This document shows positions 372 to 31,951 of a DNA stretch of 31,951 nucleotides, one piece after another. The notes under the pieces were generated by a model that saw only the letters and a list, made by a program, of their open reading frames with translations, was not told the origin of the DNA and did no database searches. Made by a program: the position numbers and the translations under genes. Location: the IMG/VR virus record IMGVR_UViG_3300025387_000050, positions 1 through 31,951 of that record; one strand, 5' to 3'. Each line of letters starts with the position of its first letter. Position 1 is the stretch's first letter. This stretch comes from a virus (taxonomy: Duplodnaviria > Caudoviricetes).

Positions 372-465
372 TTTCCATCATCCTATACAAAAACCATGCC
401 AATAGCCCAATCGGGATTAGCGATAAAGCGGCACACAAAAGGGCTATAAAAACAATTGTTGTCAT
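364..465 (-). CDS. 33-aa single-TM peptide MTTIVFIALLCAALSLIPIGLLAWFLYRMMEND
   Basis: Read manually. Fills the gap between ORFs, ATGA overlap with the stop of 462..647, hydrophobic. Confidence 0.55.
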   Translation of the reverse strand: MTTIVFIALLCAALSLIPIGLLAWFLYRMMEND

Positions 466-647
466 TTAATTGATCGCCATTGGGTTCTTGGTTCGTTGGC
501 GTGCTTAATATAAAAGTGGATCAAAAAATTGATTACTTGCTTGTAATTCATCCTTATTCCCGTGTCTTCCTTGATTCTTTCAATAACGTGTTCAATGTTC
601 GGTGAAACGGGAATTGTGATGCGTTTTAGATTAGTTCCGGTTGCCAA
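462..647 (-). CDS. Small hypothetical protein, possibly ribbon-helix-helix DNA-binding
   Basis: KRITIPVS beta-strand pattern followed by two predicted helices; function inferred. Confidence 0.55.
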   Translation of the reverse strand: MATGTNLKRITIPVSPNIEHVIERIKEDTGIRMNYKQVINFLIHFYIKHANEPRTQWRSIK

Positions 648-946
648 GGTTCACCATCCATCTTTTTAATGTTAAACAAATCTTTGTGTTGGGGATACTT
701 TTCACGCCATAAACGGGCATAAAACGCGATGAAATCATTGCTTATCTTAAAATCATCGCCCGTTGTAATAACGTAAACTTCCCATCTAATGCGGTTGATA
801 ATCAACCAATGGCTAATCTTTTTGCGCCGCATTCTTATAGCTTCCATTGCGAACTTTTCAAAATATTGCCAAATCATTGGGTTGTTTTTGTGCCATTCAT
901 CAAATAAAACCTTACGGATTACATAGGGTTTAGCCATTGTGTTCAC
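626..946 (-). CDS. Phage hypothetical protein (106 aa)
   Basis: ORF track; operon packing. Confidence 0.7.
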   Translation of the reverse strand: MNTMAKPYVIRKVLFDEWHKNNPMIWQYFEKFAMEAIRMRRKKISHWLIINRIRWEVYVITTGDDFKISNDFIAFYARLWREKYPQHKDLFNIKKMDGEPWQPELI

Positions 947-948
947 CT

Positions 949-1224
949 TCAGAATGGTATGTCATCGTCTTCAAAACTAGCTTTGGCCGCTTGGCGTGGC
1001 GCATAGTTAGCTTTGGGCGCGTAATCATCTTTGGGCTTGGGATCGTTCATGTATGCCCATCCATCCCATCCACCTTCCTTTAATGGAATTGTGTCAATCT
1101 TTAACATCGGCCCGTTTTGGGTTTCAATGATTGATCCAATCCGTGTGTATCGATTCTTCTTCATGCCATCGGCATTGGTGTAGGAACCGGTGATAACGCT
1201 TACTTCTTTGATTAACTTAGCCAT
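949..1224 (-). CDS. ssb: Short single-stranded DNA-binding protein
   Basis: Acidic C-terminal EDDDIPF tail typical of SSBs; next to exonuclease and recombinase genes. Confidence 0.75.
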   Translation of the reverse strand: MAKLIKEVSVITGSYTNADGMKKNRYTRIGSIIETQNGPMLKIDTIPLKEGGWDGWAYMNDPKPKDDYAPKANYAPRQAAKASFEDDDIPF

Positions 1225-1831
1225 TGAATTTCCTTAATAGTTCAACTTTCTTACTAACATCATCTAAAAATTGTGTAATTTCTAGTTCTAACATCTTCAC
1301 ATAGGTTGGATCGTATGTAATTCGTTCTACAAAGATTTGAAGATTTTCGGGAAACCTTGGATCAAAACTAACGAAATCACACCATTCACGCTTTGTGCAA
1401 GCCATTTGCCACATCATTTGGGGGATATATTTGGCCGGAACTTTGCCGCTTAACAATGTTTCCATGTGTGTGGCGCTATTTGGGCACTTGATTTCCACCA
1501 ATCCCTTATCGCCAACCAATCCATCGGGGCTTGCGCCGCTATTTTCAATCGTTGGGTGATCTATGAATCCGGTTTCATCAACAAACACACCACGCTTCAA
1601 TTCATAGGCTTGGCGGGCCATTGGTTCCGTTTCCGTTCCCCATTGCATTGCGGCGTTGGTGTAGCTTTCGCCTTGTTTGCCGGTTAGGCGTTCCAACACC
1701 AATTGGGTTAGGTAGTTTTCACGGCTAGCACTTGGGCCGGTTTTGGTTTTGGCAATCACATCCGCCACGCGGCTTGCGGTTACTTTACCCAATCTAGCGT
1801 TAAACCATTCATCTGTTCTTTGTTCCATCAT
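1217..1831 (-). CDS. YqaJ / lambda-exonuclease family protein
   Basis: QRTDEWF..RLGKVTAS, AMQWG..EP.AR, GASPDGLV and EIKCP motifs. Confidence 0.92.
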   Translation of the reverse strand: MMEQRTDEWFNARLGKVTASRVADVIAKTKTGPSASRENYLTQLVLERLTGKQGESYTNAAMQWGTETEPMARQAYELKRGVFVDETGFIDHPTIENSGASPDGLVGDKGLVEIKCPNSATHMETLLSGKVPAKYIPQMMWQMACTKREWCDFVSFDPRFPENLQIFVERITYDPTYVKMLELEITQFLDDVSKKVELLRKFNG

Positions 1832-1965
1832 TCTTGTTCCTCACAATCTTCGCAACCAGGGTGTTCGGGATCACGGCAATGCGGCGCACGTCTTAACAGT
1901 CTTTTGTAATCCCTTTGGCATAATTCTTCCAAATATTCAAAATAATAATCATCAGGTATTTGCAT
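1828..1965 (-). CDS. 45-aa Cys/His peptide MQIPDDYYFEYLEELCQRDYKRLLRRAPHCRDPEHPGCEDCEEQE
   Basis: Read manually. Fills the ERF-exonuclease gap, ATGA overlap at 1828-1831, HCxxxxHxxCxxC possible metal site. Confidence 0.65.
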   Translation of the reverse strand: MQIPDDYYFEYLEELCQRDYKRLLRRAPHCRDPEHPGCEDCEEQE

Positions 1966-2521
1966 TTAAAGCACCTTTCATTTCATTCTTAGCGGCAACC
2001 ACTTTGTCTTGATGAATCTTTTCCCCGTGGCACGCTTGATAAGCAATGCGATAGCTTGCAACCAATTGTTCTTCCGTTTCCGATTGGCGCATCTTTTCAA
2101 TTAACTTATCCAATTCTTTGGCATCAACATGGGAAACGGTTACTTTGGGCTTGGATGCGGCGTTGCCATCATCATCTTCGGGGGCAATACCACAAGCGGC
2201 CATCAATGAATAACGGCGGGCATAGGTTAAAGCCGAACCAAACCCTTGAGCATCATGCTTTGTTGCGGGGATGTGTAACTTGCCGCAATTCAATGTTTCA
2301 CCACTTTCATGCAAAAACATTGTTTCAACAATCACACCGTTATCGCTTTCGGATAAGTTTTGAATCAATGCTATTCCGTTGGCGTTTAAACCTTCTATAA
2401 CCGCTTCAACGCACGCGGATAGATCGGCATAGCGTGATTTGAAATGGGGGTTTGTAGATGTTTTTAATGCGGGGCCAAATGCCTTTTGTGCCTTAACCAA
2501 TGCTTGTGCTATTTCTTTCAT
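1952..2521 (-). CDS. erf: ERF-family single-strand annealing protein
   Basis: NPHFKSRYADL and GSALTYARRYSL...EDDDGN signature motifs. Confidence 0.92.
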   Translation of the reverse strand: MKEIAQALVKAQKAFGPALKTSTNPHFKSRYADLSACVEAVIEGLNANGIALIQNLSESDNGVIVETMFLHESGETLNCGKLHIPATKHDAQGFGSALTYARRYSLMAACGIAPEDDDGNAASKPKVTVSHVDAKELDKLIEKMRQSETEEQLVASYRIAYQACHGEKIHQDKVVAAKNEMKGALNANT

Positions 2522-3663: not shown

Positions 3664-4392
3664 ATGCATTATTATCAGCATCATATTGGTGATTTTATAA
3701 AAGACACCGCATTTCTTACCAATGAAGAAGTAGGCATTTATTTAAAACTTCTTTGGCTTTATTACGATACTGAAAATCCTTTACCAAACGATATTTTTAC
3801 TCTTAGCATGAAAATAAATGCTAGGGACAATGAAGATATTGTTATTGGAATACTTAATATGTTTTTCAAATTGAAAGGCGAATATTGGTATCAAAGTCGT
3901 TGTGAATTAGAAATATCAGAATATCGAGATTTAATTAACGATAAATCTAAAGCAGGAAAAGCATCAGCTATTAAACGTGCGTTAAACAAACGATCAACAG
4001 ATGTTGAACAGGTGTTAAACATCTGTACAACAGATGAGCAACTAACCATAAACCAAGAACCAATAACCAATAACCATATATATATGGATTTTGAGAAAGT
4101 TCTAAAAGCCAAAAACAAACCCTTAACTCAAACTTTGCTTAACTCTATTCAAAAGGAAGCGGATAAAGCCAAAATTACTTTGGATGATGCGATTAAAGAA
4201 TGTTGCGTTAGGGGTTGGACAACTTTTAAGGCGGAATGGATATCCAATAAAGCCGATATTGTTCACCAAACCGTTCCATCATCTAAAGAACGCGATCCCG
4301 TGCTTGTTAAGTTGGAAGAAGATGCCAAAAAGGCCGTGGCCATGCCGGAAGATGTTAAGGTTAAGTTTCAAATGATTAAGGGGAGAAAATGA
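3664..4392 (+). CDS. Replication initiator, DUF1376/YdaU family
   Basis: MHYYQHHIGDF..DT..L...E.G.Y..LL..YY N-terminus; position after cro; internal iterons. Confidence 0.85.
   Translation: MHYYQHHIGDFIKDTAFLTNEEVGIYLKLLWLYYDTENPLPNDIFTLSMKINARDNEDIVIGILNMFFKLKGEYWYQSRCELEISEYRDLINDKSKAGKASAIKRALNKRSTDVEQVLNICTTDEQLTINQEPITNNHIYMDFEKVLKAKNKPLTQTLLNSIQKEADKAKITLDDAIKECCVRGWTTFKAEWISNKADIVHQTVPSSKERDPVLVKLEEDAKKAVAMPEDVKVKFQMIKGRK
3972..4078. repeat. Probable replication origin: 11-bp iterons followed by five 7-bp repeats
   Basis: AAC recurs at 3974, 3985, 3996, 4007, 4018, 4029 and 4040; AACCA(TA/AG/AT) occurs five times in tandem at 4044-4078. Confidence 0.75.
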
Positions 4393-5348
4393 ATGAGTTG
4401 GCTTTATTCGCAGGCGCTGGTGGAGGGATTCTTGGCGGGAAATTACTTGGATGGCGAACCGTGTGCGCCGTTGAATGGGAACCATACCCAGCAAGCGTAT
4501 TGTGCGCCCGACAAAATGACGGACTTCTCCCGCCTTTCCCGATTTGGGATGACGTTCAAACCTTTGACGGAAACCCGTGGAAAGGAATTGTTGATGTCAT
4601 ATCTGGGGGCTTTCCATGCCAGGACATTAGCGCAGCAGGAAAAGGCGCAGGAATTGACGGAGAGCGATCAGGAATGTGGGGAAAAATGGCAAGGATCATT
4701 CGTGAAGTACGACCCAAATACGTCTTTGTGGAAAACTCACCAATGCTCACTTCTAGGGGACTTGGACGAGTTCTTGGAGACTTGGCCAAAATGGGGTTTG
4801 ATGCGCGATGGGGAGTGCTGGGAGCAGCAGACGTTGGAGCAAACCATCAGAGGGACAGGATATGGATTGTTGCCAAATGGGATGGACAGTTTTCATACAT
4901 TCAACACAACAGGATTAGACGGTGGGAGCAACAGTCGAAAAGCCTTAAAAAAACGTATGGAAAATTGGCCAATGCCCGATGCGAATTGTGGAATGAGGGG
5001 GACACAAGAAAATTGGACACCAAAGAGGAAATCGGGGCATCAAGCACAATATTCGATAAATCAAGCAGTGAGAGATGCGGAAAAGATCAAATGGCCAACA
5101 CCAGTGAAATCAGATCATGCAGCGAGAAGACCAAGCAAGGGATGGCAAGGAAATTCAGATTTGCCGAGTGTGGTATGGACAGAAACTGGTGGCAGAGAGA
5201 ACCCGAGTTTGTCCCCCGCACAACTCAACGCGACATGGGTGGAATGGTTGATGGGTTGGCCGCTAGGGTGGACAGACTTAAAGCAATTGGAAACGGACAA
5301 GTTCCTCTTTGTGCAGCAACCGCATGGGAAATCCTAAGTGAAAATTGA
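4389..5348 (+). CDS. C5-cytosine DNA methyltransferase, catalytic (alpha) chain lacking motif IX
   Basis: Motif I LFAGAGG, IV GFPCQD, VI VENS, VIII QRDRIW, X LKAIGNGQVP. Confidence 0.92.
   Translation: MNELALFAGAGGGILGGKLLGWRTVCAVEWEPYPASVLCARQNDGLLPPFPIWDDVQTFDGNPWKGIVDVISGGFPCQDISAAGKGAGIDGERSGMWGKMARIIREVRPKYVFVENSPMLTSRGLGRVLGDLAKMGFDARWGVLGAADVGANHQRDRIWIVAKWDGQFSYIQHNRIRRWEQQSKSLKKTYGKLANARCELWNEGDTRKLDTKEEIGASSTIFDKSSSERCGKDQMANTSEIRSCSEKTKQGMARKFRFAECGMDRNWWQREPEFVPRTTQRDMGGMVDGLAARVDRLKAIGNGQVPLCAATAWEILSEN
4393..5337 (+). CDS. Overlapping +1-frame ORF, probable methyltransferase beta chain carrying motif IX
   Basis: 314 codons open; ends with LNATWVEWLMGWPLGWTD (motif IX-like); GGGAG lies 7 nt before its ATG. 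Confidence 0.75.
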   Translation: MSWLYSQALVEGFLAGNYLDGEPCAPLNGNHTQQAYCAPDKMTDFSRLSRFGMTFKPLTETRGKELLMSYLGAFHARTLAQQEKAQELTESDQECGEKWQGSFVKYDPNTSLWKTHQCSLLGDLDEFLETWPKWGLMRDGECWEQQTLEQTIRGTGYGLLPNGMDSFHTFNTTGLDGGSNSRKALKKRMENWPMPDANCGMRGTQENWTPKRKSGHQAQYSINQAVRDAEKIKWPTPVKSDHAARRPSKGWQGNSDLPSVVWTETGGRENPSLSPAQLNATWVEWLMGWPLGWTDLKQLETDKFLFVQQPHGKS

Positions 5349-5493
5349 TTTAATTGTTGAACACTATGCCAAACTAGCTTTAAAACCGGCTTGGATTGAT
5401 TATGTTCGCCATCAAGTTAAATTAATGGAACAAGAACCACAATTCAAAGGCATCGGAAAGTTAATAGCCCAACGCATTAAGGAATTAAAGTGA
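5338..5493 (+). CDS. 51-aa hypothetical (MKIDLIVEHYAKLALKPAWIDYVRHQV...)
   Basis: Read manually. GTG directly follows the TAA of 4393..5337; its stop overlaps the start of the resolvase gene (GTGA). Confidence 0.6.
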   Translation: MKIDLIVEHYAKLALKPAWIDYVRHQVKLMEQEPQFKGIGKLIAQRIKELK

Positions 5494-5951
5494 AATACTA
5501 CATAGGCTTTGATCCTGGCTTTTCCGGCGCATGGGGCGCTATCGATCAAAACGGTGAATACATTGCTTGCGGCGATATGATCCACACCGATCAATATATT
5601 GAAACCGAAAAGATATGGGATGAAATCACCGATATGCTTAACGGCAATGATTGTGAAATAACCCTTGAATGGGTTGCATCCATGCCAAACCAAGGGGTTT
5701 CATCAACCTTTAAGTTCGGAAGTGCCTTTGGGGCCGCTTTAGCGCTTGCACAACGCTTTAAAACACCTTGGCACCTAGTAACCCCTAGGGTTTGGAAAAA
5801 AGCGCTTAAATTGGATTCTGACAAGAAACAAAGCCTTGAATTGGCCCGCCGGTTATTTCCACGGGCACCGCTTAAACGAATCAAAGATAACGGCCGTGCG
5901 GAAGCATTGTTGATTGCTTATTATCAATTTACACAAACAAGGGGGTATTAA
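5490..5951 (+). CDS. RuvC-like Holliday junction resolvase
   Basis: IGFDPG, LEWV..MP.QGVSSTFKFG, VTPRVWKK and D.GRAEALLIA motifs. Confidence 0.85.
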   Translation: MKYYIGFDPGFSGAWGAIDQNGEYIACGDMIHTDQYIETEKIWDEITDMLNGNDCEITLEWVASMPNQGVSSTFKFGSAFGAALALAQRFKTPWHLVTPRVWKKALKLDSDKKQSLELARRLFPRAPLKRIKDNGRAEALLIAYYQFTQTRGY

Positions 5952-6128
5952 ATGGATGAATTAAAAGTTATTGTTGAAAAGCAAAAAGAACTAGCCAAAG
6001 AAGCCAAGTTTCTATCCGATGAAATCCGCAATGCCGTGCTGGAAGAAGTGGCCCAAGAATTTGACAAGATGCGTTTTGGCAACACATCGGCTTCATTTGC
6101 CGCTTATGTTCGGGGGATGAAGAAATGA
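5952..6128 (+). CDS. 58-aa hypothetical (MDELKVIVEK...RNAVLEEVAQEFDKMRFGNTSASFAAYVRGMKK)
   Basis: Read manually. GGGGG RBS, fills the gap, ATGA overlap downstream. Confidence 0.7.
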   Translation: MDELKVIVEKQKELAKEAKFLSDEIRNAVLEEVAQEFDKMRFGNTSASFAAYVRGMKK

Positions 6129-6411
6129 CACCCGAAAGTTATGCCCAATTTATCCGTGAAAACGCTAGTGTTTATGCCGATGCCAAATCACGCCGGATCG
6201 GTGCCGAACTAAAATTAAAATCCGCCAAATTGCCGCACAAGAACGTGAAGCATTGGCCGATGGTGAATATTCCGCACTTTACGATGAACTTTGTAAAGCC
6301 ATCAAAGTGGAAGAAGAATTGAAATATAAATTGGAAGCGGCACGCCTTTTCATTGACATTTGGCGCACCCGTGAAGCATCCGAACGTTTAGCAATCAGGT
6401 CACATGAATGA
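6125..6411 (+). pseudogene. Frameshifted helical phage protein
   Basis: Frame 1 reads MTPESY...LKSAK; the -1 frame continues QIAAQEREALADGEY...IDIWRTREASER...HE to TGA 6409-6411, which overlaps the next ATG. Span is 287 nt, not a multiple of 3. Confidence 0.65.
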
Positions 6412-6632
6412 AATGCCCCATTTGTAATCAAAAAACAACAACGATTGAATCAAGATTAAATGACAACAACACTAGAAGAAGAAGATACGAATGCGCCAAA
6501 GGGCATCGTTTCAAAACAATGGAAGTCATATCCCAAGACGAAATACACGCGGAACGCGAATCTTCTAAGGTTAATTGCATCAATCCCGTGCCAACTATGT
6601 GGTTTCCATCTATCCCAAGCGGCCCATTCTAA
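6408..6632 (+). CDS. Zn-ribbon protein (resembles NrdR N-terminus)
   Basis: MKCPIC...ESR....RRRRYEC..GHRFKTME pattern. Confidence 0.75.
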   Translation: MKCPICNQKTTTIESRLNDNNTRRRRYECAKGHRFKTMEVISQDEIHAERESSKVNCINPVPTMWFPSIPSGPF

Positions 6633-6882
6633 TTGGCATGGGGGCAAAGGCCGTGGGATTAAAGCTAGTGATGAATATTGTGCGGCACTATGCCAATCGT
6701 GCCATCACGAAATAGATCAAGGAAACGAACTAAGCAAAGAAGAACGAATTGAACAATGGGTTTTTGCCCATATCAAAACGTTGCATTACCTTTGCATAAC
6801 CGATCAATGGCCACCCAAAGTGCCATTAACCGATTTGTATTTAGCCTTTACGCAAGGCGGGGATTCCGGCGCTAGGTTGTGA
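6460..6882 (+). CDS. Zn-binding HNH-like protein (DUF968/DUF1364-like); start uncertain
   Basis: PCQLCG..QAAHSN..GKGRGIKASD...ALCQSCH..ID motif. Confidence 0.75.
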   Translation: MTTTLEEEDTNAPKGIVSKQWKSYPKTKYTRNANLLRLIASIPCQLCGFHLSQAAHSNWHGGKGRGIKASDEYCAALCQSCHHEIDQGNELSKEERIEQWVFAHIKTLHYLCITDQWPPKVPLTDLYLAFTQGGDSGARL

Positions 6883-7056
6883 ACTAGGGCTATGGCGTGG
6901 GTGTGCGTGTGACATATCGGTTTTTTCGTGCTTCTTTAGCTCTTTTTCGATAGCCATAACGTGTTCACGTTCTTTTTGCCATTCCTTTTTAACAACAAAA
7001 TGTTTATCCATTTCGTGTTTGGTTTCACCCTTGGTAAACTTAAAATTCGTAGGCAT
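6841..7056 (-). CDS. Last late gene, His/Lys-rich hypothetical (71 aa)
   Basis: ORF track; GGAG RBS; starts 2 nt after the endolysin stop. Confidence 0.7.
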   Translation of the reverse strand: MPTNFKFTKGETKHEMDKHFVVKKEWQKEREHVMAIEKELKKHEKTDMSHAHPRHSPSSQPSAGIPALRKG

Positions 7057-7058
7057 AG

Positions 7059-7652
7059 TTACTCCAATACGCTTAACGCGCGTTTAGTTAATGAAATTCT
7101 ATCATCTAGGCCAATTGTTCCGCCATTGATGCGTTTAGTCAATCCTACCCAATCTTCCGCTTCGGCTAGTTCATTGCAACCGTGGGTTTTCCAAAACCAT
7201 GCCGCGCTTAAAGAAGCATACATGGGGGATGCCACAAGTTGTGGGTTTTTAATGAAATCTTGCCCAACCGCTTGGCCAAAATGCCAATAGTTATCATGGC
7301 CGGTTAATTGGATCAAACCGCGCCCGTGGAACCGATCACCATCACCACTAGTTTCATCACGGTTGCCCATCCGATTGGCGTATATCCGGTTGGCAATCTT
7401 GCTTGCGTTGCCCGCGTATAAAGGGATTTCTTCGGGCTTAAACTTGTGGCCAAACAACTTTTGAAGCGTTTCCGCGCGATAGTGTAGGTTTTCTTCCAAC
7501 ACCCTAAAATGCGCCGATTCATGGCTACATTGGCCTATAAACGCCGCTTGTTTCTTAACATCGTTAATCCCAAACGTGGTGAACGCCGTGGTTAGCGGTT
7601 CAGACCATTCCGGCCCAATGCCTAGTGCGTGAAGTTTTTCGGTGCTAATCAT
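7059..7652 (-). CDS. Endolysin, glycoside hydrolase family 19
   Basis: AAFIGQCSHES, GRGLIQLTG..NY, SAAWFW and TKRINGG..GL.DR motifs. Confidence 0.93.
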   Translation of the reverse strand: MISTEKLHALGIGPEWSEPLTTAFTTFGINDVKKQAAFIGQCSHESAHFRVLEENLHYRAETLQKLFGHKFKPEEIPLYAGNASKIANRIYANRMGNRDETSGDGDRFHGRGLIQLTGHDNYWHFGQAVGQDFIKNPQLVASPMYASLSAAWFWKTHGCNELAEAEDWVGLTKRINGGTIGLDDRISLTKRALSVLE

Positions 7653-7726
7653 ATATTGCCACTAAGTAACAAATAAAGCATTAAAAAACCAACGGCAATA
7701 CAAATTCCAACCAAGAATCTATCCAT
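7649..7726 (-). CDS. 25-aa single-TM peptide MDRFLVGICIAVGFLMLYLLLSGNI
   Basis: Read manually. TAATG overlap with the Rz stop and ATGA overlap with the endolysin start. Confidence 0.6.
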   Translation of the reverse strand: MDRFLVGICIAVGFLMLYLLLSGNI

Positions 7727-9798: not shown

Positions 9799-9801
9799 TT
9801 G

Positions 9802-9999: not shown

Positions 10000-10001
10000 T
10001 T

Positions 10002-22667: not shown

Positions 22668-22676
22668 GTTTTCCCC

Positions 22677-25079
22677 TTATGGTGCTATATAAATAGCGCT
22701 TACATATAACGCACCGGTTGATGGATTATATTTTAGCTTAGTTGATGATGTTGTTGCGGCATTATTTCCGCTTGAATTGCTTACGAAAACCGGATAATAC
22801 GTTGCGTTGGTGCTTGTGTTATCGGTGATGGCAATGTTGGTTGCGTTGGTTGCGGTTGTGGCCGTTGTTGCCGTGCTTGCGTTGCCGGTTAACGCACCCA
22901 CAAAAGTGGTTGATGTAACCGATGTTAATCCGGCAATCGTTGTGGCCGTTCCGCCCAAACTAATGGCGGTTGATCCAACGGTTACGCTTGAATTGGTTAA
23001 AGCACTATTGGGAATTGATGTTAAACCGGCACCCGATCCACTAAATTGCGTTGCCGTAATAATTCCCGTGCTAGGGTTAAATTGTAGCTTTGTTGAACTT
23101 GTGTATTCGGTTGAAACCGATCCACTTGTGGCACTTGTAAACGTTAAATAACGGGTTGCATTTGTGGTTGTATCATCACTAATTGAAATCGATCCACTAA
23201 CGCTTTGCCATGTTGGGGCCGATGATCCATTAGAAGTTAGAACTTGACCACTTGTTCCGGCGGATGTTATCCCTAATGCGCTTCCACTAGAATAAACCGC
23301 ACCACCGGCAACGGCGGTTAAATTAGCGTTTGTGCCGCCATAACCAAGGCCAACAACGTTACCGTTCCATGTGCCGTTTGTATAAGAACCAGCCCAATTC
23401 AACGTGTTAGTCGACCAGCTTGCGTTGCTAGGCGTCGAATTATGGTAATCCCACGACCCTGCTGCTGTTGAGTTGCTCAACAAAACAACTGTAATGTAAG
23501 AGCCTGATTGAACCGTGATAACCGTAGTGGACGAATTGTTTTGAATAACAATCGTGCCGCTAGATTGGTTATTGTTAAACGTAAACGTAGCGCCATTGGG
23601 CAGCGTAGTTGCATCAGGCAGTTTAATCGTCTGACCGCCAGAGCCTGTAATGGCCCAATTCTGAACAGAAGAAGCTGTCAACGTAATCAATGTGCTAGCA
23701 GCTTGGCTTGTGTAGCCCTCAAACAAGCAATTAGTAGTGATGTTGCCGTTTCCATCACGCAAAACAACCGAATTAGCACCACTTGATGCGATTACACCGG
23801 TTCCACCACTGGCAACATTCAATGTTCCGGCAAGCGTAACCGCCCCCGTTGTGCCGGTTGATGGCGTAAATCCCGTGGTTCCCGCACTAAATGTGCTTAC
23901 AAAATTACCACTTAACGCCGATGTTGGAATTGTGGTTGATGCGCTAACCGCACTTGATCCGTTGCCATAAAGATAGCCGGTTAAGCCACTTGTAACCAAT
24001 GTTGAAAGCGTTGCCGATCCACCCGTGATTGAAACGGAATTGGCATTTTGCGTTGACATTGTGCCCAAACCGGTAATATCCGTGTTCGGGATAGTGGTTG
24101 TGGCCGTAAAAGCACTTGTTCCGTTGCCTTTAACATATCCGGTTAGCGTTGTTGCACCGGTTCCGCCATTCGCGGGGGCAATAGTGGTTCCGTTCCATGT
24201 TCCAACCGTAATTGTTCCAACGCCGGTAATTCCGGTGTATGAACCACTAATTAGGCTAGTTGAAATGGTTCCACTTGTGATTTGGCTTGCGGCAATCGCA
24301 ATGTTTTGTTGGCTTGCGCTAGTGATTTGGCCTTGCGCATTCACCGCCAAAGTAACAGATTGGCTTGCCGAACCATAGGTTGCGGCCGTTACACCGGTGT
24401 TTGTGATGCTAAATGTGTTGCCGGTTAAACTTAGGCCGGTTCCGTTGTAATAGGTTCCATTTCCACTAAATTGAACCCAAGGAACGGCCGTTGTTCCTAA
24501 CGTTCCGCTAGATGATGCCGTGCAAACCCATCCGGTGTTAGCTTGGCCACCATTCAAAAGAACCGTGTAAGCACCGGAAAATTCAGACCAAACGTTCATG
24601 TCACTAGAACGTGCCCATGCGCTTGCCGATGCTATGTAAATTCCGTTTTGTGATGATGTGGTTTGATTTTTAACCAAAACACGATCACCGGCTAATGTTG
24701 TGTAGCCATCAATTGTTTGCAATCCGCTTAACGTGATGTTTGCGGTTGTTGCCACTTGGCACGCCGCTTTGGGGCCTAGCCCTTGTGCAACCGTGTCAAC
24801 ATAATATTTGTTTGCAATATCGGTGCTATTCGCCGGTGTTGTTGTAATTGTTCCGGTTGTAGTGGTGATATTGGTAAAAACGCCGGTTGATGGCGTTGTA
24901 GCACCAATCGGTGAAGAATCTAAGGTGCTATTGGTGATCGTTAATCCGCTTAGGATCGGATTGATCGGAACGGTGAATGCCTGGCCCTGCCCAATGAACG
25001 TTTGAAAATTACCGTAAACATCAAAATATGCTTGAACGGGTAATATATTTTGGTCAATGGTTTTTGCAGGGCCAGCCAT
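22677..25079 (-). CDS. Long tail fibre protein (800 aa)
   Basis: Thr/Ser/Gly-rich; ATTANITLSGLQTIDG...GDRVLVKNQT..QNGIY domain; repeated GTWNG/GGTG and TSSTKL..NPSTG units. Confidence 0.8.
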   Translation of the reverse strand: MAGPAKTIDQNILPVQAYFDVYGNFQTFIGQGQAFTVPINPILSGLTITNSTLDSSPIGATTPSTGVFTNITTTTGTITTTPANSTDIANKYYVDTVAQGLGPKAACQVATTANITLSGLQTIDGYTTLAGDRVLVKNQTTSSQNGIYIASASAWARSSDMNVWSEFSGAYTVLLNGGQANTGWVCTASSSGTLGTTAVPWVQFSGNGTYYNGTGLSLTGNTFSITNTGVTAATYGSASQSVTLAVNAQGQITSASQQNIAIAASQITSGTISTSLISGSYTGITGVGTITVGTWNGTTIAPANGGTGATTLTGYVKGNGTSAFTATTTIPNTDITGLGTMSTQNANSVSITGGSATLSTLVTSGLTGYLYGNGSSAVSASTTIPTSALSGNFVSTFSAGTTGFTPSTGTTGAVTLAGTLNVASGGTGVIASSGANSVVLRDGNGNITTNCLFEGYTSQAASTLITLTASSVQNWAITGSGGQTIKLPDATTLPNGATFTFNNNQSSGTIVIQNNSSTTVITVQSGSYITVVLLSNSTAAGSWDYHNSTPSNASWSTNTLNWAGSYTNGTWNGNVVGLGYGGTNANLTAVAGGAVYSSGSALGITSAGTSGQVLTSNGSSAPTWQSVSGSISISDDTTTNATRYLTFTSATSGSVSTEYTSSTKLQFNPSTGIITATQFSGSGAGLTSIPNSALTNSSVTVGSTAISLGGTATTIAGLTSVTSTTFVGALTGNASTATTATTATNATNIAITDNTSTNATYYPVFVSNSSGNNAATTSSTKLKYNPSTGALYVSAIYIAP

Positions 25080-25088
25080 AACTTTCCT

Positions 25089-25436
25089 TTAGCTTTGATC
25101 GCCAACCGGTGTTACATAAAGTAAACCGGCGGTGCCACTATTGCTTATCGCCGTCATGTAAAACGGCGCGGCGGGCGTAGCAAGAATCAATGGTGAGGTC
25201 ATACCGGCTGGTAAAACATAATCACCATTTGTCCCATCCGTTGGGAACGTTGGTGCGGGGCAAGGCGATGCGTTAGAAAACTTAATCGCCATAGGTGCCG
25301 CACCGGTGTTCAAAAAGGATGCGTAGTTGATTTGGTCATTCGTGTATCCGGCAATCAACGTGCTTGAATGCGCGGTGCTTGTAACGGATAAAGCAACGGT
25401 TTGACCACTATTGCGTTGAACGGTTGATCCGGCCAT
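25089..25436 (-). CDS. Hypothetical structural protein (115 aa)
   Basis: ORF track; beta-rich; lies between head and fibre genes. Confidence 0.65.
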   Translation of the reverse strand: MAGSTVQRNSGQTVALSVTSTAHSSTLIAGYTNDQINYASFLNTGAAPMAIKFSNASPCPAPTFPTDGTNGDYVLPAGMTSPLILATPAAPFYMTAISNSGTAGLLYVTPVGDQS

Positions 25437-25438
25437 GA

Positions 25439-25765
25439 TTATGCGGCATTAGTTGGTAGAACGGTGCCTTCCAAACGATCAACACCCAATGTGTAAACAC
25501 CGGATGCGGGCGTTGCGGATGAACCCGTGCTATTTGTAAACTGAATTGACAATGTGTTAGCGGCAGAAACCCAAACGTTTGCAATGCCAACACCGGTTGT
25601 TTGCGCACCTTGCAATGAAATATTTACGAAATCATTAACCACAAGGCCAGGAATCGTAAATGTTTGTGTTGCTTGTGAACCGGAAACCGCTGCGGGTGTC
25701 AAAGTAGGGTAAACAAGGAAAGAATTGAGGATATTACCTCTAAGGATCGTAGTTTGTAATGACAT
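25439..25765 (-). CDS. Hypothetical structural protein (108 aa)
   Basis: AAGGAG RBS; beta-rich. Confidence 0.7.
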   Translation of the reverse strand: MSLQTTILRGNILNSFLVYPTLTPAAVSGSQATQTFTIPGLVVNDFVNISLQGAQTTGVGIANVWVSAANTLSIQFTNSTGSSATPASGVYTLGVDRLEGTVLPTNAA

Positions 25766-25800
25766 AAAAACTCCTTTGCGTTGATTGTATCTTGAAAAAT

Positions 25801-25831
25801 AAAAAAAGCCACCCGTTTTGTGGATGGCTTT
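25801..25831 (-). terminator. Rho-independent terminator after the capsid genes
   Basis: Minus strand AAAGCCATCC-ACAAAAC-GGGTGGC-TTTTTTT. Confidence 0.8.
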
Positions 25832-25850
25832 CCCCTTATTTACTCACAAA

Positions 25851-26291
25851 TTAGGGTAAAAATGTAAGGTCGTAACCGTAGACAAATACGTCACAAGTCG
25901 CGGCAATCGTAGTTCCAACGTTCACATAAATGTTAGTTGGGCTAGAAATAGCGGTGTTAGGATTTGTTGCGGTTGAAATGGTCACATAAGGGCCACCGGT
26001 GTTGCTTGTTAAAGCGGCGGTAGTCAATACGGTTGAACCGGTTTGGCCCGTTCCGGTGTAAACACCAACGGTTGCCGTTGCAATAGTGGTTGTTGCACCG
26101 CTAGAGTTTAGGCCGTTTGTGATTACAACGCTTGTGGGCACAAATTTAGACACATCCAACACAACCATAGCGGTATCACCCGCTAGGGCCAAGTTTACGG
26201 ATTGTGCGGAAGCAATCAAACGCAACGCTTGGTTTGTGGCCAAGTTTTGTGGGTGATTGCTTACTGTGGTTGCGGGTCCTGGATTACTCAT
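25851..26291 (-). CDS. Probable capsid decoration/minor head protein
   Basis: AAGGAG RBS; directly after the coat gene and before the terminator. Confidence 0.65.
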   Translation of the reverse strand: MSNPGPATTVSNHPQNLATNQALRLIASAQSVNLALAGDTAMVVLDVSKFVPTSVVITNGLNSSGATTTIATATVGVYTGTGQTGSTVLTTAALTSNTGGPYVTISTATNPNTAISSPTNIYVNVGTTIAATCDVFVYGYDLTFLP

Positions 26292-26313
26292 GTTAATTAC
26301 TCCTTAATTTAGT

Positions 26314-27558
26314 TTAGGCGGCAACGCGGCAAGCCAATTCGGGATACAAAGGTGCCCATCCGTACAACACATCCAAACGAGTTGGAATTGAATCGTTGTT
26401 GATGGTGTACTGACGTACAACACGCATTGAAAGTCCGATTTCTTTATCGGAAGCACGGCCCGCAAAATGTACACCTTCAGGCAATTCGAGATCGGCTACT
26501 GCCAAGCAGAATGCGTTACGGTGCATGATGATGTTTTGGGGTGAAACGGTTCCGCTATTGTTGAACGGTGTAACGGCGGATGCACCGGCGTTAGTAACGC
26601 TAACGTTTTGGAATTGACCGCTTGTAATCACGGCAGGGCTAACTGTTACGCTAGTTGTGCCGGATGTTGCAACCGTGGCGGCTTGTGTAACAACAAAGTT
26701 TCTCAACTTGTTGGAACCATAGGCTTGGCGGTTTTGTGGGTTAACGGCATACACGCCCGCGATTTGGATCACATCACCAACGTTCAAATTACCGGCGGCC
26801 GTAGTGGCGCTCAGTGCGATTGTTGATGTTTGTGCCCATCCAGATGTTAAAAATCCGGTTGCGGTGCTTGTATTGCACGATAAAACGGCCGTAGGGCTAT
26901 TGCCAAAGGTTTGGCTAACCACGTTCTGGTCCATTTTCCAGTTCATTCCAGCGGAATCCCTGCCCATCAGGCCCTTGCGATATTGTTCGCCAATGGCTTC
27001 TTGTGGAACAAACAAGCCTTTTAGTGAATCAACAATCGTTGCGGATGTGAAAGGTTCAACAATACATGAACGGCGGCCATCACGGGGTGCGCCTTCAGCG
27101 TCCAAGTATGCGGCAGCGGTCAAATATGTAATCAAACCGGTTGGGGGCGTTCCGGCAACACCAACAATATTAGCCGTGTTGTTCTTGGCCATAACCAATC
27201 CATCACGGTCTATCTTATTGGCAATGGCGGCCACAGCGGGTTTCAAAACACGGTCCGAAAACATGTCGAGGCTCAAAGCCAAGTCTTGGGTCGTGAACTG
27301 GGTATCAACGTGGAATTGCGTTGCCAATGTTACTGGCACGCTTGTCTCGTTGAAGTCTTCAACATTCAATGCGGGACCCGTGGTACCGATAAAGCGACCA
27401 GGTCTCCTCACATTGACGGTATTGCCGATCTTCGCGCCAACTACTGCGAACTGGTCATCATAGTTGCGGTCAACTTCGCTTGTGAACGTAAGTTCATTTT
27501 CCAAAACCATCAGAGCTTCGTTGGTGATTTTGGATATCGTTAAGAGATTATTACTCAT
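26314..27558 (-). CDS. Major capsid protein, P22 coat (gp5) family
   Basis: MSNNLLTISKITNEALMVLENEL...KIG.TVNVRRP...RLDVLYGW.PLYPELACR. Confidence 0.93.
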   Translation of the reverse strand: MSNNLLTISKITNEALMVLENELTFTSEVDRNYDDQFAVVGAKIGNTVNVRRPGRFIGTTGPALNVEDFNETSVPVTLATQFHVDTQFTTQDLALSLDMFSDRVLKPAVAAIANKIDRDGLVMAKNNTANIVGVAGTPPTGLITYLTAAAYLDAEGAPRDGRRSCIVEPFTSATIVDSLKGLFVPQEAIGEQYRKGLMGRDSAGMNWKMDQNVVSQTFGNSPTAVLSCNTSTATGFLTSGWAQTSTIALSATTAAGNLNVGDVIQIAGVYAVNPQNRQAYGSNKLRNFVVTQAATVATSGTTSVTVSPAVITSGQFQNVSVTNAGASAVTPFNNSGTVSPQNIIMHRNAFCLAVADLELPEGVHFAGRASDKEIGLSMRVVRQYTINNDSIPTRLDVLYGWAPLYPELACRVAA

Positions 27559-27581
27559 TTGATTTCCTTTGAATTAAAAAA

Positions 27582-28472
27582 CTATCGAATTTTTCCCGCT
27601 TTACGCGCTTCTTTCCACGCTTGGTATGTGCCGTGAAATTCACCACTAGAATTAATGGGAATATCCGCAACACCACCACTTGGCTTCAATCCACGCACCG
27701 GTGCGGGTGCTTTACTTGTCTTAACCACAGTTTCCTTAGCCGGTTCGGCCTTTTCGTATAGCTTTTCCAACTTTCCCAATTCAACCAACGCTTTGCGGGT
27801 AGGCATGGCCGCCAACTTTTGCGCATATTCCAAATCTTCCGCTAGGTGATATAGGATTCTTGGGCCTACATCGGATTCCAATATGGAATCACGGATTTCA
27901 TCGGAAACAACAACATTAGCCGTTGAAACCATATCATCGTAATCGGGCAATTCCGCCTTCACTTTGTCCAACTTTTCCGTCCAAGATTGGATAACCTTTT
28001 GACGTTCTTCGTTGGCTTTCCGTGTGGCTTCTTGTTGATCCCTTTCACGCAATGCCTTTTCCGTAGAAAATTCCGCTAATGCCTTTGCATATTCAAACGC
28101 ATCTTGGAACTGCCCTGGTTGTGGTTCATTATCAACGCTCGGCTTTTGTGGTGCCGCCTGTTGCTCTAACGCCTTCAACCTCGCTTCCAACGTTGCCCTA
28201 GCTTGGCGTTCTGCTTCCAGATTTTGCTCGGCTAGTTTCCGTTGTTTAGTCAATTCGGAAAATCTTCGTTCTAACTTCGGATTCGCCTTCTTTTCTTCTG
28301 TGGGGTTGGCTTCTTCATGCGCTTCGGGTTCATTCTCAACCACTTCGAATGATGGCTCGGGAGTTGTCTCAACCGCCACATCATCCGTTTGGTTAGCTAA
28401 ACCTAAACGATTTGCATAAAATTCCGCCGCATTTTCGCTAGTGAGCACTTGGCCCGCTTCTTTTTCAGACAT
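27582..28472 (-). CDS. Scaffolding protein
   Basis: Acidic coiled-coil protein before the coat gene; basic C-terminal helix YQAWKEARKAGKIR. Confidence 0.85.
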   Translation of the reverse strand: MSEKEAGQVLTSENAAEFYANRLGLANQTDDVAVETTPEPSFEVVENEPEAHEEANPTEEKKANPKLERRFSELTKQRKLAEQNLEAERQARATLEARLKALEQQAAPQKPSVDNEPQPGQFQDAFEYAKALAEFSTEKALRERDQQEATRKANEERQKVIQSWTEKLDKVKAELPDYDDMVSTANVVVSDEIRDSILESDVGPRILYHLAEDLEYAQKLAAMPTRKALVELGKLEKLYEKAEPAKETVVKTSKAPAPVRGLKPSGGVADIPINSSGEFHGTYQAWKEARKAGKIR

Positions 28473-28523
28473 AGGTTACCCTAAGAATTAACCCCGTATA
28501 CCTTACGGGTAAGGTTTGTGTAA

Positions 28524-28551
28524 ATACTACACGAATTTATTACTTTGTCAA
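28524..28551 (-). promoter_or_regulatory. Sigma70-like promoter upstream of scaffold/coat
   Basis: TTGACA (28551-28546), 16-nt spacer, TAGTAT (28529-28524). Confidence 0.55.
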
Positions 28552-28874
28552 TCATTAGGTTTTGTGTAATCCCACGCTTCAGTTACATGGTTTCTCATGT
28601 CACCCATTCTTTCGTTATATTTTTTATTTTTTTGTTTTTCGTTTAATCCAGTAAAAGTTTTAATTTGATTTGCAATCCCACTTGCGTGTTCTTTAATATG
28701 GGGTTCATTCACCTTTACAAATTCAAAATAATCTTTATGTGGATTAAGTTTTTCTTTATATTTACTGTAAAAATCATTAGATGGGCTAGGCTTTCGTTTT
28801 TCTTTTAATTGACCGCGTTTTTCCATTGTTTCACGATCAAAATCCGATTTGTTATGGCTTGTTACGGTTGGCAT
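28548..28874 (-). CDS. Lys-rich hypothetical protein between portal and scaffold
   Basis: TAATG coupling to the portal stop. Confidence 0.75.
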   Translation of the reverse strand: MPTVTSHNKSDFDRETMEKRGQLKEKRKPSPSNDFYSKYKEKLNPHKDYFEFVKVNEPHIKEHASGIANQIKTFTGLNEKQKNKKYNERMGDMRNHVTEAWDYTKPND

Positions 28875-30973
28875 TAGATGGCCCTTTCAGTTGTTTCGGC
28901 ACTTGCTTCATGTGCCGCGCGTTTATCCATTTCGGCCAAAATAATGGCCACTTGTGCTTTATAACGTTCGATTTCCAATTGGGTTTGTGTTTTAACCACG
29001 GTGTCTTGCGCTTGCGTATGTGTGCGCAACAACATATCGCGGTGTTTTTCTTGATCGCGCAATTCAATATCGTGGGCACGATTGGTTTCTTTAATCAAGG
29101 TGCGCTTGGTTTCCGCATCTTGTTTCAATTGTTCAACATCCGAACGGTTCTTCAACATCAATTGCATGGCTTGTAATTGTTGTTGTAGTTGTTGGATGGT
29201 TTGTTTAGATTGTGCCAATTGCATCTGAACTTGTGGCGGAACGGGTGATTTATCATCGATTTGCGCCAATGGGTTAGCGGCCGCCAAACGATCGGCAATC
29301 ACATCGGCACCTGGAAAATCCATATTCCTAAAAATCAAATCACCGGCAATATTCATCAATGCGGGATCGGCACCCAACAATGGCATCATGGTTTCAACGG
29401 CTTCGATGCGCTTGGAATTGTATCCTGGGCCGGTATCCATCACCACATCGTATTCGCCAACGGTTACATCGTTAAGAATCTTTTCAACGCCTTGTTCATC
29501 TTGCGCTTTCTTATTGATTTCAACCAAATCGGGCTTTCCATCATCACCAATGATGCGCATAACACGGGCGTTATCGTAGATTTTGGGGATCAAATCCAAG
29601 ATAACACGGGCGGTGTGCTTAATAGAACGTGTTAAGTTATCGTAATAGTGATAGTTAGATAAATCAATTTGTTGTTGTTGGCCGTTCAATGCCTTACCGC
29701 TAATGTTGCCGGTTGGCATTTGATTGGGATCAAAGATACCCAAAACGGCTTGCATATCGCTATTAATACCATCCGCGGCGGCCATGATACCGGCGGGGGG
29801 CGCTTCGGGTTGGATGCGTGTTGGTGTAGGTGCGGGAACGCCTTCAATGTCTTTTTGCTTATATCTAAGCACGGGCATTGATTTGATGTTAGCTTGCGCC
29901 CATTCGTTTTCGTGGCCTTCGTCTTGGCCTTCCGCAATCAACCACTTGGCTTTTGGTGCCAACGCAATGCTTTCGGTTAATGCGGTTTTCCAAAAGTTAT
30001 ACATCCGTTGTGGGTCTTTGGCCATGCGAACCAAGCCATACTTCTTACGCTTGTTTTCAACAATGAATTCTTCGCCATAAACGGGGATGATTGGGATGTA
30101 TTTAGATGCCCATTTGCCTTCTTCCAACACTTCCATGCCGGTGCAAATGATTTGCTTAACTTCGCGCTTGAAAGATGGGCGTTCATCGATCACATAAAGG
30201 CCACGGGCAATCATTTCTTCTTGATCGGGCAAATCGGTGCGGAAGTGCTTTTCACCGTTGCTTAACAAGCATAGCTTATCCGCCTTGCGTTCGGTATACC
30301 AATATTCGGCAATCCTAATGTCTTCACGCATTACCCATTCGGCGTTGGAATCACCCGTTCCGCGTTGTGTGAATCCCGCGCCATCATCGGCCCCTGGATA
30401 CATTTTGCGGAATACTTCCTTGCTAACCACTTGGGTGATTAGGCACTTTTCGGCATCGGAACCATCCGGCAATATGCTATTTGGATCAAAATAAACCGTG
30501 AATGGGTTGTGGATAGGCTTGATGTAGATTTCTTGATCGAACGAATCTTCACGCACATAATCCGTTTCAATGCGCCAATAGCCAAATCCCATGCGAACGG
30601 CATAATTGAATGCGTTGTCATAGGCGTGATCGGCATCGGATTGAACTTCAATATGGCGGCAAATGCCGGTTAGGATTTCCGCAACCTTGGCATCCGATTG
30701 GTTGTTCATGCCGTGAACTTTGATGCGGGGGCGTTGTTGCCTTTGTTGGTTGGTTACTTGGCGAACATAAGCATCAATCTTGTTGATGGTTAGGCAAGGG
30801 CGGGCTTCCAAAGAACGGCTATTTTGTATTTCAACGGGCCATTGATCCCCCGCCGCAAACTTTAAGTCTTCCAACGCTTCCGAACGGTTGTTAGTATCGG
30901 CATCATTGGCCAACTTTAAGAACTTTTTGGCTTCATCAATCCGTGGATCGAATTCCGTTTGGTTATCGGCCAT
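28874..30973 (-). CDS. Portal protein, P22-like
   Basis: EDLKFAAGDQWP...RPCLTINKI, YGLVR.AKDPQRMYN, SGKA...QQQ, GEYDVV.DTGP.Y.SKR.EA motifs. Confidence 0.93.
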   Translation of the reverse strand: MADNQTEFDPRIDEAKKFLKLANDADTNNRSEALEDLKFAAGDQWPVEIQNSRSLEARPCLTINKIDAYVRQVTNQQRQQRPRIKVHGMNNQSDAKVAEILTGICRHIEVQSDADHAYDNAFNYAVRMGFGYWRIETDYVREDSFDQEIYIKPIHNPFTVYFDPNSILPDGSDAEKCLITQVVSKEVFRKMYPGADDGAGFTQRGTGDSNAEWVMREDIRIAEYWYTERKADKLCLLSNGEKHFRTDLPDQEEMIARGLYVIDERPSFKREVKQIICTGMEVLEEGKWASKYIPIIPVYGEEFIVENKRKKYGLVRMAKDPQRMYNFWKTALTESIALAPKAKWLIAEGQDEGHENEWAQANIKSMPVLRYKQKDIEGVPAPTPTRIQPEAPPAGIMAAADGINSDMQAVLGIFDPNQMPTGNISGKALNGQQQQIDLSNYHYYDNLTRSIKHTARVILDLIPKIYDNARVMRIIGDDGKPDLVEINKKAQDEQGVEKILNDVTVGEYDVVMDTGPGYNSKRIEAVETMMPLLGADPALMNIAGDLIFRNMDFPGADVIADRLAAANPLAQIDDKSPVPPQVQMQLAQSKQTIQQLQQQLQAMQLMLKNRSDVEQLKQDAETKRTLIKETNRAHDIELRDQEKHRDMLLRTHTQAQDTVVKTQTQLEIERYKAQVAIILAEMDKRAAHEASAETTERAI

Positions 30974-30976
30974 AAA

Positions 30977-31951
30977 TTACCCCATCCAATTGCTAGGTTC
31001 GTAAACCGGTTTTTTAACAACCATCTTTTTAGGTTCTTGGATCATTAACCCAAGCATCCTAAAGGCATCGGCACCATGCGAATATTGATCGTGTAACGGT
31101 GTTCGGCTAAATTGCTTAGTATCGGGATCAACTTCATAGCGATAGTGACGTAAACATTGTAGCCCATCGGCACAATTTATTCTATCAAACCAACAATTAG
31201 CGAAAATAGTTCGTGCGGCGTTGATGCTATCGGCAATCGGTGTGCGCGGGATAATCCTAGTTTTATAACCGGCCGAACGCACAATTTCTTCAATCGATCG
31301 CCCCGCCGCCGCCAATGTCTTGTTTTCGGCATCATGGGGAAGCCATAGCGTATCAAACACATATCCAAAGGTTTGCATCTTGGCCAATATGGCGCTTATG
31401 GTTTCTTGGGATGTTTCAAAATAGCGGATTAGGCGTGTTTCCATGCCCACAAACTGAACAAACCACAATGCCGTTGCATCCGCCCAACCTAAGTCAAAAA
31501 CAACGTGAACCGGCTTAATAGGATCATAAGGAACTTTTCCAATCCTTTCTTGAAGATCGGCCAATTGGATTTCCTTGGCAAATACGGCACCATCAACGGT
31601 TTGGCGGCATATTCCTTCCCAAACCATGTTATAGGCTTCCAAATCACGCATCTTTAGCGTGTCTTTTTCCATCCGCAATACTTCGGGGAACCAAGGGTTA
31701 TCGTTCCAATTGATCTTTTGGATAACCGCGTTTTCCGGCGTGTGGATCACGAATCTTTGGTAGGTTTCATCCGTTTCTAGTTCCGGATTGAACGAAACCC
31801 ATATTTCGGATTCTTCTTTTCGGATAGTTGGAATCAATGTATCCCATGAACGCTTGGAAACCGTCTGAGCTTCTTCCACCCAACATACATCCACACCTTC
31901 ATAAGATTTAACGTTGGCCACGTTGTTCTTTAAGCCAACAAAGTTAAATTC
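30977..31951 (-). CDS. terL: Terminase large subunit (5' end outside the window)
   Basis: Walker B WVEEAQ, SFNP, DNPWFP, nuclease DLG..D and SHGADAFR motifs; frame open to the window edge. Confidence 0.93.
   Translation of the reverse strand, partial: EFNFVGLKNNVANVKSYEGVDVCWVEEAQTVSKRSWDTLIPTIRKEESEIWVSFNPELETDETYQRFVIHTPENAVIQKINWNDNPWFPEVLRMEKDTLKMRDLEAYNMVWEGICRQTVDGAVFAKEIQLADLQERIGKVPYDPIKPVHVVFDLGWADATALWFVQFVGMETRLIRYFETSQETISAILAKMQTFGYVFDTLWLPHDAENKTLAAAGRSIEEIVRSAGYKTRIIPRTPIADSINAARTIFANCWFDRINCADGLQCLRHYRYEVDPDTKQFSRTPLHDQYSHGADAFRMLGLMIQEPKKMVVKKPVYEPSNWMG

Follow-up and report, generated by a model that had tools for sequence, protein, structure and literature searches.

Depletion of CAG, GAG and GAC on both strands of a P22-like podophage genome and its recurrence in other phage lineages

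The window, the whole stretch of DNA analysed here, comprises the 31,951 nucleotides of the virus record IMGVR_UViG_3300025387_000050 (Duplodnaviria; Caudoviricetes), in which the trinucleotides CAG/CTG, GAG/CTC and GAC/GTC are rare on both strands. An earlier reading of the sequence alone, made without database searches (the sequence-only reading), had drawn attention to this shortage. The genome is of the P22-like podophage type by PHROG matches to portal (phrog_156), coat (phrog_283), scaffold, head-closure and ejection genes, with further matches to an Erf/YqaJ recombination module, a Cro-like gene, a resolvase and a GH19-type endolysin. The gene for the terminase large subunit is truncated at the window end, about 1 kb of the phage genome lies outside the window, and identical proteins are found on a 32,976-base contig. 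The nearest named phages are the Manatee Spring phages (66-71% identity in the portal) and Rhodoferax phage P26218 (41.5%), which suggests a freshwater betaproteobacterial host; isolate searches returned distant phages only. The features are listed below, with occurrences of the six triplets counted as sites.

400-31951: whole-genome, both-strand depletion of CAG/CTG, GAG/CTC and GAC/GTC, from triplet counts and shuffles.
462-2521, minus strand: early recombination genes (single-stranded-DNA-binding-like, YqaJ exonuclease, Erf), strongly recoded, 0-15 sites per kb.
4389-5348, plus strand: C5 cytosine methylase, two overlapping frames (4389-5348 and 4393-5337), undepleted, 82 sites per kb.
5490-19682: resolvase, lysis, DNA-ejection, head-closure and adaptor genes, 3-23 sites per kb.
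14761-15540: stretch of a DNA-ejection gene counted in the sequence-only reading, 2 sites in 780 nucleotides.
19907-22667, minus strand: 2-oxoglutarate-Fe(II) oxygenase and tail-accessory genes, a less-depleted island, 37-58 sites per kb.
22681-23340: stretch of a tail/decoration gene counted in the sequence-only reading, 1 site in 660 nucleotides.
25439-28472, minus strand: head region with partial retention by site density, capsid 43 and scaffold 27 per kb.
28874-31951, minus strand: portal and terminase genes, strongly recoded; in the portal, GAG in 0 of 52 Glu and CAG in 1 of 49 Gln codons.

The six triplets occur 622 times in the whole window, against 2,579 expected from mononucleotide composition, and are the most depleted six of the 64 trinucleotides under a first-order model. 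The two strands lose them alike (GAG 61 and CTC 68, CAG 149 and CTG 109, GAC 94 and GTC 141), giving strand-pooled observed/expected ratios of 0.15 for GAG, 0.27 for GAC and 0.30 for CAG, with CAC at 1.09. A weaker fourth depleted word is TAC/GTA (0.46), chiefly as GTAC and CTAC. The hand counts of the sequence-only reading in the two stretches listed above are exact. Its description of the core genome as almost free of the triplets fits most core genes (0-20 sites per kb) but not the methylase, the 19907-22667 block or the capsid gene. In the 34 genes of low density, CAG is used in 9 of 416 Gln, GAG in 12 of 387 Glu and GAC in 40 of 358 Asp codons. The wording of codon junctions is also as had been described, with Thr-Gly written with ACC 59, ACG 15, ACA 3 and ACT 3 times, and Ala-Ala with GCC 56, GCG 36, GCA 5 and GCT 5 times. 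Non-coding DNA holds 37 sites in 1,748 bases.

The depletion was compared with 200 synonymous-codon shuffles that preserve both the protein and its codon usage. All six triplets are depleted in both junction frames, with z ranging from -5.2 to -19.2 when only the 34 genes of low density are taken and from -3.5 to -20.4 for all 46 genes; none of the 200 shuffles was as low. In a conditional codon-choice model they have the lowest weights of the 64 (-1.05 to -1.89), and antisense words and junction frames are affected equally. Codon usage, which the sequence-only reading had named as the control to apply, thus leaves the depletion standing, and an effect confined to in-frame codons is ruled out. 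The depletion in the window is confirmed as real and goes beyond protein and codon-usage constraints.

Depletion is seen in the 14 of 80 portal relatives whose identity is at least 89%, whereas the 66 with identities of 66-73% do not show it. In the portal tree all depleted rows group in a single clade (support of 93 in the Shimodaira-Hasegawa-like approximate likelihood ratio test), and their sisters at 83-86% identity have CAG at 1.17-1.48 and no CCGG. This tree was quickly built from 35 of the 81 distinct rows, with the 60-73% group thinned, and the grouping as one clade is by this test only. As the sisters are normal, the depletion is recent. The further refuting condition of the sequence-only reading, a host chromosome that shares the signature, could be applied only to 20 chromosome pieces from candidate host families, and none of these is CAG-depleted (1.02-1.52).

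Changes among close kin separate selection from mutation. Among kin at 95-99.95% identity (20 loci), unique silent changes that create one of the triplets number 46 against 253 expected (CAG 15/109, GAG 13/55, GAC 17/75), and among kin at 88-95% (8 loci) 16 against 131. Losses in the 95-99.95% set number 31 against 22 expected. Control words gave ratios near 1 (CAC 1.29, AAG 0.92, AAC 0.90, GAT 1.13), apart from TAC (0.44) and, mildly, TAG (0.63) and AGT (0.68), and the same test against undepleted sisters gave 1.06. A mutational signature, a codon or tRNA preference or a sequencing artefact would agree with the mild under-use of GAG/CTC (0.4-0.9) that is general in undepleted relatives and bacterial chromosome pieces. 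However, gains are suppressed in all twelve substitution types, with losses up only 1.4-1.8-fold, junction frames and antisense words are hit as hard as codons, and 40 of the 274 viral loci examined show triplet depletion. Moreover, sister triplets at conserved residues are erased at any position where a change is silent, the central A (to C or G) included. Of 106 junction CAG, 56 were lost through A to C and 32 through A to G, and G to A accounts for 96 of 101 in-frame GAG losses. As the loss runs from A/T to G/C in one frame and from G/C to A/T in another, a single mutational process is excluded, and this family of explanations retains almost no probability. The depletion is upheld by ongoing purifying selection and not by mutation. 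Dipeptides in which the protein forces a triplet (Met/Trp-Ser/Thr) are uninformative, with 19 against 33 in the window and 26 against 48 in undepleted sisters.

Sites are retained unevenly, and 12 of the 46 genes carry more than 25 per kb. The densest are the C5 methylase (82 per kb), a gene at 123-371 (64), the genes of the 19907-22667 block (37-58), the Cro-like gene (54) and the capsid gene (43). In the methylase, a second full-length open frame begins 4 bases after the first, and both frames have methyltransferase PHROG matches. The gene is absent from G001 and G002, complete relatives within the clade, and is 77-80% identical to genes of undepleted phages, so it is likely to be a recent import; on the same grounds it was rejected as the cause of the depletion. 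The 19907-22667 island is likewise likely to be a recent acquisition, since three of its four genes are without a match in G001-G005. The capsid gene, with a triplet density 0.55 of that in undepleted kin, is not a recent import, as its nucleotide identity to sisters is 78% and that of the portal 76-77%.

Depletion of the same kind is found outside the clade. L083, of a separate portal lineage (65%), is without CAG and GAG but keeps GAC. G1171, an HK97-type siphophage reached through a search with the G002 methylase as query, has GAG at 0.07, GAC at 0.14, CAG at 0.24 and CAC at 0.33, with the other twelve trinucleotides centred on A at 0.81-1.83. Of 80 portal relatives of G1171, the 50 at 87% identity or more are depleted, typically to 0.10, 0.42, 0.54 and 0.65 (GAG, GAC, CAG and CAC), while in the remaining 30 (73-86%) CAG is at least 0.94, and three of these lose GAG only. 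G1172 has chiefly lost CAG (0.27, flanks 0.20-0.42), and L501 and L502 have lost GAG only (0.31-0.40 at junctions), with CAG at about 1. In G1171, G1172, L083 and other convergent lineages the depletion holds at codon junctions. These losses show that the depletion is convergent across lineages, with S-A-S (A between two bases that are each C or G) as the common class. S-A-S is also the class reported to be modified by Mom of phage Mu (PMC13219725). Selection at the DNA level on A:T-centred three-base cores, as the sequence-only reading proposed, is therefore supported by the junction test, the gain and loss test, clade specificity and convergence. The HK97-type siphophage clade of G1171 (L425-L474) shows graded S-A-S loss, with GAG at 0.26 or less in 49 of its 50 loci.

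Restriction-site avoidance of more familiar kinds is present in the same genomes. In the window, 27 of the 64 six-base palindromes are absent, and CCSGG occurs 0, GASTC 0 and GTAC 11 times. Avoidance of palindromes concerns words of 4-6 bases that fall close to zero, whereas the triplets disappear from contexts that are not palindromes and are still present 622 times. The view that this is not classical palindrome avoidance is thus correct for the triplets but not for the genome, which has classical avoidance as well. In dsDNA phages, silent removal of words read by the host is familiar from Rusinov et al. 2018, whose account of virulent phages reports avoidance almost exclusively of orthodox Type II sites, with Type I and IIG sites not avoided (PMC6286503); here, by comparison, the unit is an asymmetric triplet lost from all contexts and both strands, and incompletely. 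The sisters L218, L225 and L230 avoid CCGG and CGCG completely, an avoidance that the depleted portal clade has lost, and the siphophages with the strongest depletion also keep CCGG. The loss of CCGG avoidance coincides with the depletion and may mark a change of host.

Type I systems whose CAG, GAG and GAC half-sites are recombined with many second halves, or Type III systems alone, would also remove short asymmetric words. GAG half-sites are common among Type I systems (PMC12707154, Table 1), and surviving triplets are slightly poorer in T at +7 to +10 (0.87-0.97). However, triplets that lack a partner T at +7 to +10 and triplets that have one are depleted alike (without against with T, 0.17 against 0.15 for the window and 0.28 against 0.24 for G002), and Type I is rejected because the downstream T makes no difference. 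Words of the Type III kind are missing here from one strand only (CGAAG 0 against 34, GAAGG 0 against 34), and the same one-strand pattern, typical of Type III avoidance, is seen in relatives for CCACC, GAACC and GGACT. As described for strand-biased Type III/MANTIS avoidance, such sites are asymmetric, of at least 5 bases, and avoided on one strand (bioRxiv 10.64898/2026.09.23.753747), in contrast to triplets lost from both. An origin in either system is very improbable. The triplet purge is a variant of restriction-site avoidance that does not match the palindromic, Type I or Type III forms.

The avoided unit appears to be short. Relative to undepleted kin, the window retains 73 of 687 removable CAG sites (0.11), 37 of 256 GAG (0.14) and 79 of 342 GAC (0.23). 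All testable five-base contexts of CAG and GAG are hit, with no heterogeneity among those upstream (p 0.61 and 0.31). Six-mers with a count of zero show no asymmetry, with 9 against 4.5 expected upstream and 8 against 4.2 downstream. The loss of CAG and GAG is thus shown to be context-free. The relative G002 is also short of GAAG (0.24) and GAAC (0.47), with GAAG avoided harder than GAG. The sparing of GAGG in G002 is only apparent, as it reflects a trade-off against GAAG in Glu codons (antisense 4 of 31).

The explanation tentatively favoured here, at somewhat under even probability, is a host defence that reads a 3-4-base, A:T-centred site and does harm in proportion to the number of sites. 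Silent changes have thinned out CAG, GAG and GAC on both strands of the phage; the agent behind this would be encoded by the host and would act on DNA. Its target would be the S-A-S family, individual variants recognising a single triplet or more than one. Its effect would be graded, so that sites are thinned four- to ten-fold but never to zero and are retained to a greater extent in the capsid gene. A reader of 3-4 bases is favoured because context-free loss of a single triplet is the output expected of one short-site enzyme, and such losses, seen in other lineages, favour the very-short-motif reader that the sequence-only reading had offered as one of two causes. A graded reader is favoured because true sites of 5-6 bases reach zero in the same genomes while hundreds of triplets persist. 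The persisting triplets are most numerous in head genes of both virion types, and this retention suggests a weak cost per site, offset by expression constraints. Head genes retain more S-A-S than their neighbours in the podophage (window 26314-27558) and in a siphophage (L425:12340-14761). A host gene is preferred to a phage gene because the window, G001 and G002 share no modifying gene, and because kin without the amino-methylase discussed below still show suppressed gains (17 against 64 expected).

As to chemistry, our guess is that phosphorothioate bacteriophage exclusion (BREX) type 4/Ssp single-strand marking would carry about half of the weight of this explanation and an undescribed system the rest. 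Phosphorothioate BREX type 4, Ssp and Dnd systems are alike in their 3-4-base motifs, partial modification and shape-tolerant families, and the reported motifs, which include CAG, NCTC, GACG, GAAG and GAAC, overlap the depleted words (PMC11931770, PMC12914056). They differ in that GAC loss is wider than GACG and in that, in the parts of these accounts drawn on here, CAC has no counterpart among the motifs and no avoidance on the phage side is described. It is possible, if doubtful, that an undescribed and widespread anti-phage system of freshwater bacteria reads three-base S-A-S on double-stranded DNA, in GAG, CAG, GAC and CAC variants, and drove podophages and siphophages to recode independently. 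If so, Mu Mom may have evolved as a shield against such a defence, and phage trinucleotide spectra would provide a readout for finding it.

Several points weigh against a short-site host defence. GAC loss is heterogeneous and depends on context, with AGACA spared (16 against 16.8 expected). Partly depleted siphophages, in which GAG is lost in every context, lose four-base words (CCAG 0.08 against ACAG 1.07, and also RGAC), and these losses fit a union of longer sites. Three-base and four-base units thus both seem to be in play, given the context-free loss of CAG and GAG and the four-base words of the siphophages and G002. If very many long sites were avoided, saturation would likewise make the remaining sites homogeneous, and the loss of CAG in amino-methylase carriers is accounted for by a host defence only as a correlated counter-defence. 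The common phosphorothioate motifs CCA, GATC and GGCC are undepleted in the window. In one candidate host family, MmeI-type domains are found in 62 of 201 genomes and DUF4007, which is presumably linked to phosphorothioate BREX-4/Ssp systems, in 7 of 201. Neither a host nor an enzyme was found in the portal scan or the DNA searches of three families described below. The BREX-4 motifs were described in gut bacteria (Bacteroides, Parabacteroides, Clostridiales), and the anti-phage activity of those variants is given as untested in the account used (PMC12914056).

The count of MmeI-type domains agrees with a different host-side cause, a swarm of fast-changing single-strand N6-methyladenine (m6A) systems (MmeI-like Type IIG/IIL, BREX type 1, some Type III) with sites of 5-7 bases. 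The methylated adenine in these sites lies nearly always in S-A-S, and the purged union of sites would collapse onto triplets. Such a swarm is rather unlikely as the cause, although it is a strong rival, and it is what survives of the sequence-only proposal of Type I/IIG/III or BREX systems, in which Type I fails the partner-T test and Type III leaves a different mark. The likeness to the MmeI family lies in single-strand m6A on a penultimate adenine before C/G and usually after C/G, from which loss independent of orientation is expected (PMC2731913, PMC2731914). Of 22 MmeI-family sites, 14 have a fixed S-A-S at the end and the majority of the rest G-R-A-G or G-N-A-C (PMC2731913, Table 1); these latter ends match the extra G002 words GAAG, GAAC and GTAC. 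The pattern expected of a swarm, S-A-S cores with secondary G-R-A-G and G-N-A-C words, fits G1171 and the extra words of G002, while the window keeps CAC, GAAG and CAAC. By a hand tally of 83 fixed-flank IIG/III motifs in Blow 2016, S3 Table (PMC4752239), GAG accounts for 23, CAG 15, AAG 10, GAC 8, CAT 8 and CAC 6. A residue code applied by hand to 31 of 32 MmeI-type domains, with one unreadable and several assignments uncertain, gave about 18 fixed S-A-S and five G-R-A-G sites (about GAG 5, GAC 6, CAC 5, CAG 3, RAG 5, RAC 6). Undepleted relatives are already without some S-A-S five-mers, e.g. GAGAC, GGACG and CAGTG, and surviving triplets favour A/T at -2 and -3.

However, a swarm predicts loss of AAG, CAT, CAC and CAAC, and the window keeps them (0.99, 1.10 and 1.22 of kin for the first three, and 2.49 for CAAC). 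It also predicts that CAG should be the rarest target in the candidate family (3 of 31), whereas in the window CAG shows the strongest loss when compared with kin. MmeI-family sites are of 6-7 bases reaching upstream (PMC2731913, PMC2731914), and the window has no upstream-specific signal, although saturation could hide one. As C and G are toggled by two residues in this family, the context-free loss of a single triplet in G1172, L501 and L502 is hard to obtain. The survey that reports no Type I/IIG avoidance (PMC6286503) is a further point against a swarm, though its site-level test may miss a three-base effect. An MmeI methylase search in one genus gave 0 matches in 3 genomes. The small genomes G469 and G451, of the family of G007, have two or three full-length MmeI-type genes of differing predicted specificity.

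A third possibility is that the depletion is self-inflicted: a phage enzyme, either a ParB-associated amino-methylase or Mom, would mark adenines broadly or at S-A-S, and a modification-dependent nuclease of the host, or the cost of a bulky mark, would select against the sites. E. coli Mrr probably cuts methylated GAC and CAG. The amino-methylase is found in G002, L176 and L180 and in the independently depleted L083, G1171 and G1172. Outside the focal clade, median CAG is 0.71 in carriers (n=19) and 1.13 in non-carriers (n=40), and CAG is below 0.7 in 8 of 19 carriers and 0 of 40 non-carriers (amino-methylase gene excluded; loci not independent). Mu Mom modifies exactly S-A-S (PMC13219725, PMC3299994), and G001 has a Mom-family gene. 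However, the window and G001 are without the amino-methylase, CAG is at 0.7 or more in 11 of 19 carriers, and GAG, GAC and CAC do not separate carriers from non-carriers. Gains are still suppressed in the non-carriers, as given above, although recombination with carriers is possible. Depletion is weakest in the subclade that carries Mom (CAG 0.36-0.47), a search of G1171, G1172, G1173, G1174 and G1175 without a positive control match revealed no Mom, and siphophage locus L454 is depleted with no such modifying gene in 21 kb. No Mom match was found among the window proteins, with about 1 kb of the genome outside. Mu Mom shares the S-A-S class, but it masks sites chemically where these phages delete them; it is a phage enzyme, and the window is without Mom and keeps CAC (PMC13219725, PMC3299994). 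A self-inflicted origin is therefore improbable.

In G001 (L089:8075-9275), and also in L012 and L013, a ParB gene and the Mom-family gene (PF25680, E 7.8e-51) lie ahead of the small terminase, in the least depleted subclade. The amino-methylase family carries an SCPPY motif (L092:3455-4450, L176, L180, L083, L373:7995-8927) and is swapped in and out near a replication gene; distant members carry or adjoin pyridoxal phosphate enzymes. A preference of Mom for a pyrimidine at +3 is uninformative, as depleted and undepleted genomes have an equal slight deficit. CRISPR protospacer-adjacent motifs, DarT-type thymine motifs, RNA-cleaving toxins and ultraviolet photoproducts were rejected as causes, since AAG, GAA, GANA and TT/TC words are undepleted and both strands are affected.

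The host was sought by several routes. A portal scan of genome contigs gave 8 loci, mostly on short contigs in assembled genomes with conflicting taxon labels (Methylotenera, Legionella, Bacillota, Limnohabitans, Methylococcales, Saccharibacteria). No spacer-like exact match to window 12000-31951 was found in 401, 401 and 361 genomes of three betaproteobacterial families, and cluster and homologue comparisons gave no host names. The depletion is assigned here to neither the IIG nor the phosphorothioate systems.

No report of S-A-S avoidance at the trinucleotide level in phages was found in the literature searched, with most subscription papers outside the search. Avoidance is usually tested against di- or trinucleotide background models (e.g. 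second-order Markov), which subtract a three-base effect away. The avoidance described here reshapes codon use across the whole genome, arises within a genus-level group, is still selected and recurs in an unrelated virion type. It is thus the product either of a defence with an unusually short target or of the collective footprint of fast-changing asymmetric restriction that a survey reported absent. It also offers a simple sequence signature for tying uncultured phages to hosts and defences. In G001, a relative already mentioned, the capsid gene is interrupted by about 200 bases (L089:15033-15249). This insert has no Rfam match at E up to 1 and, by its core motifs, resembles a minimal group I intron.

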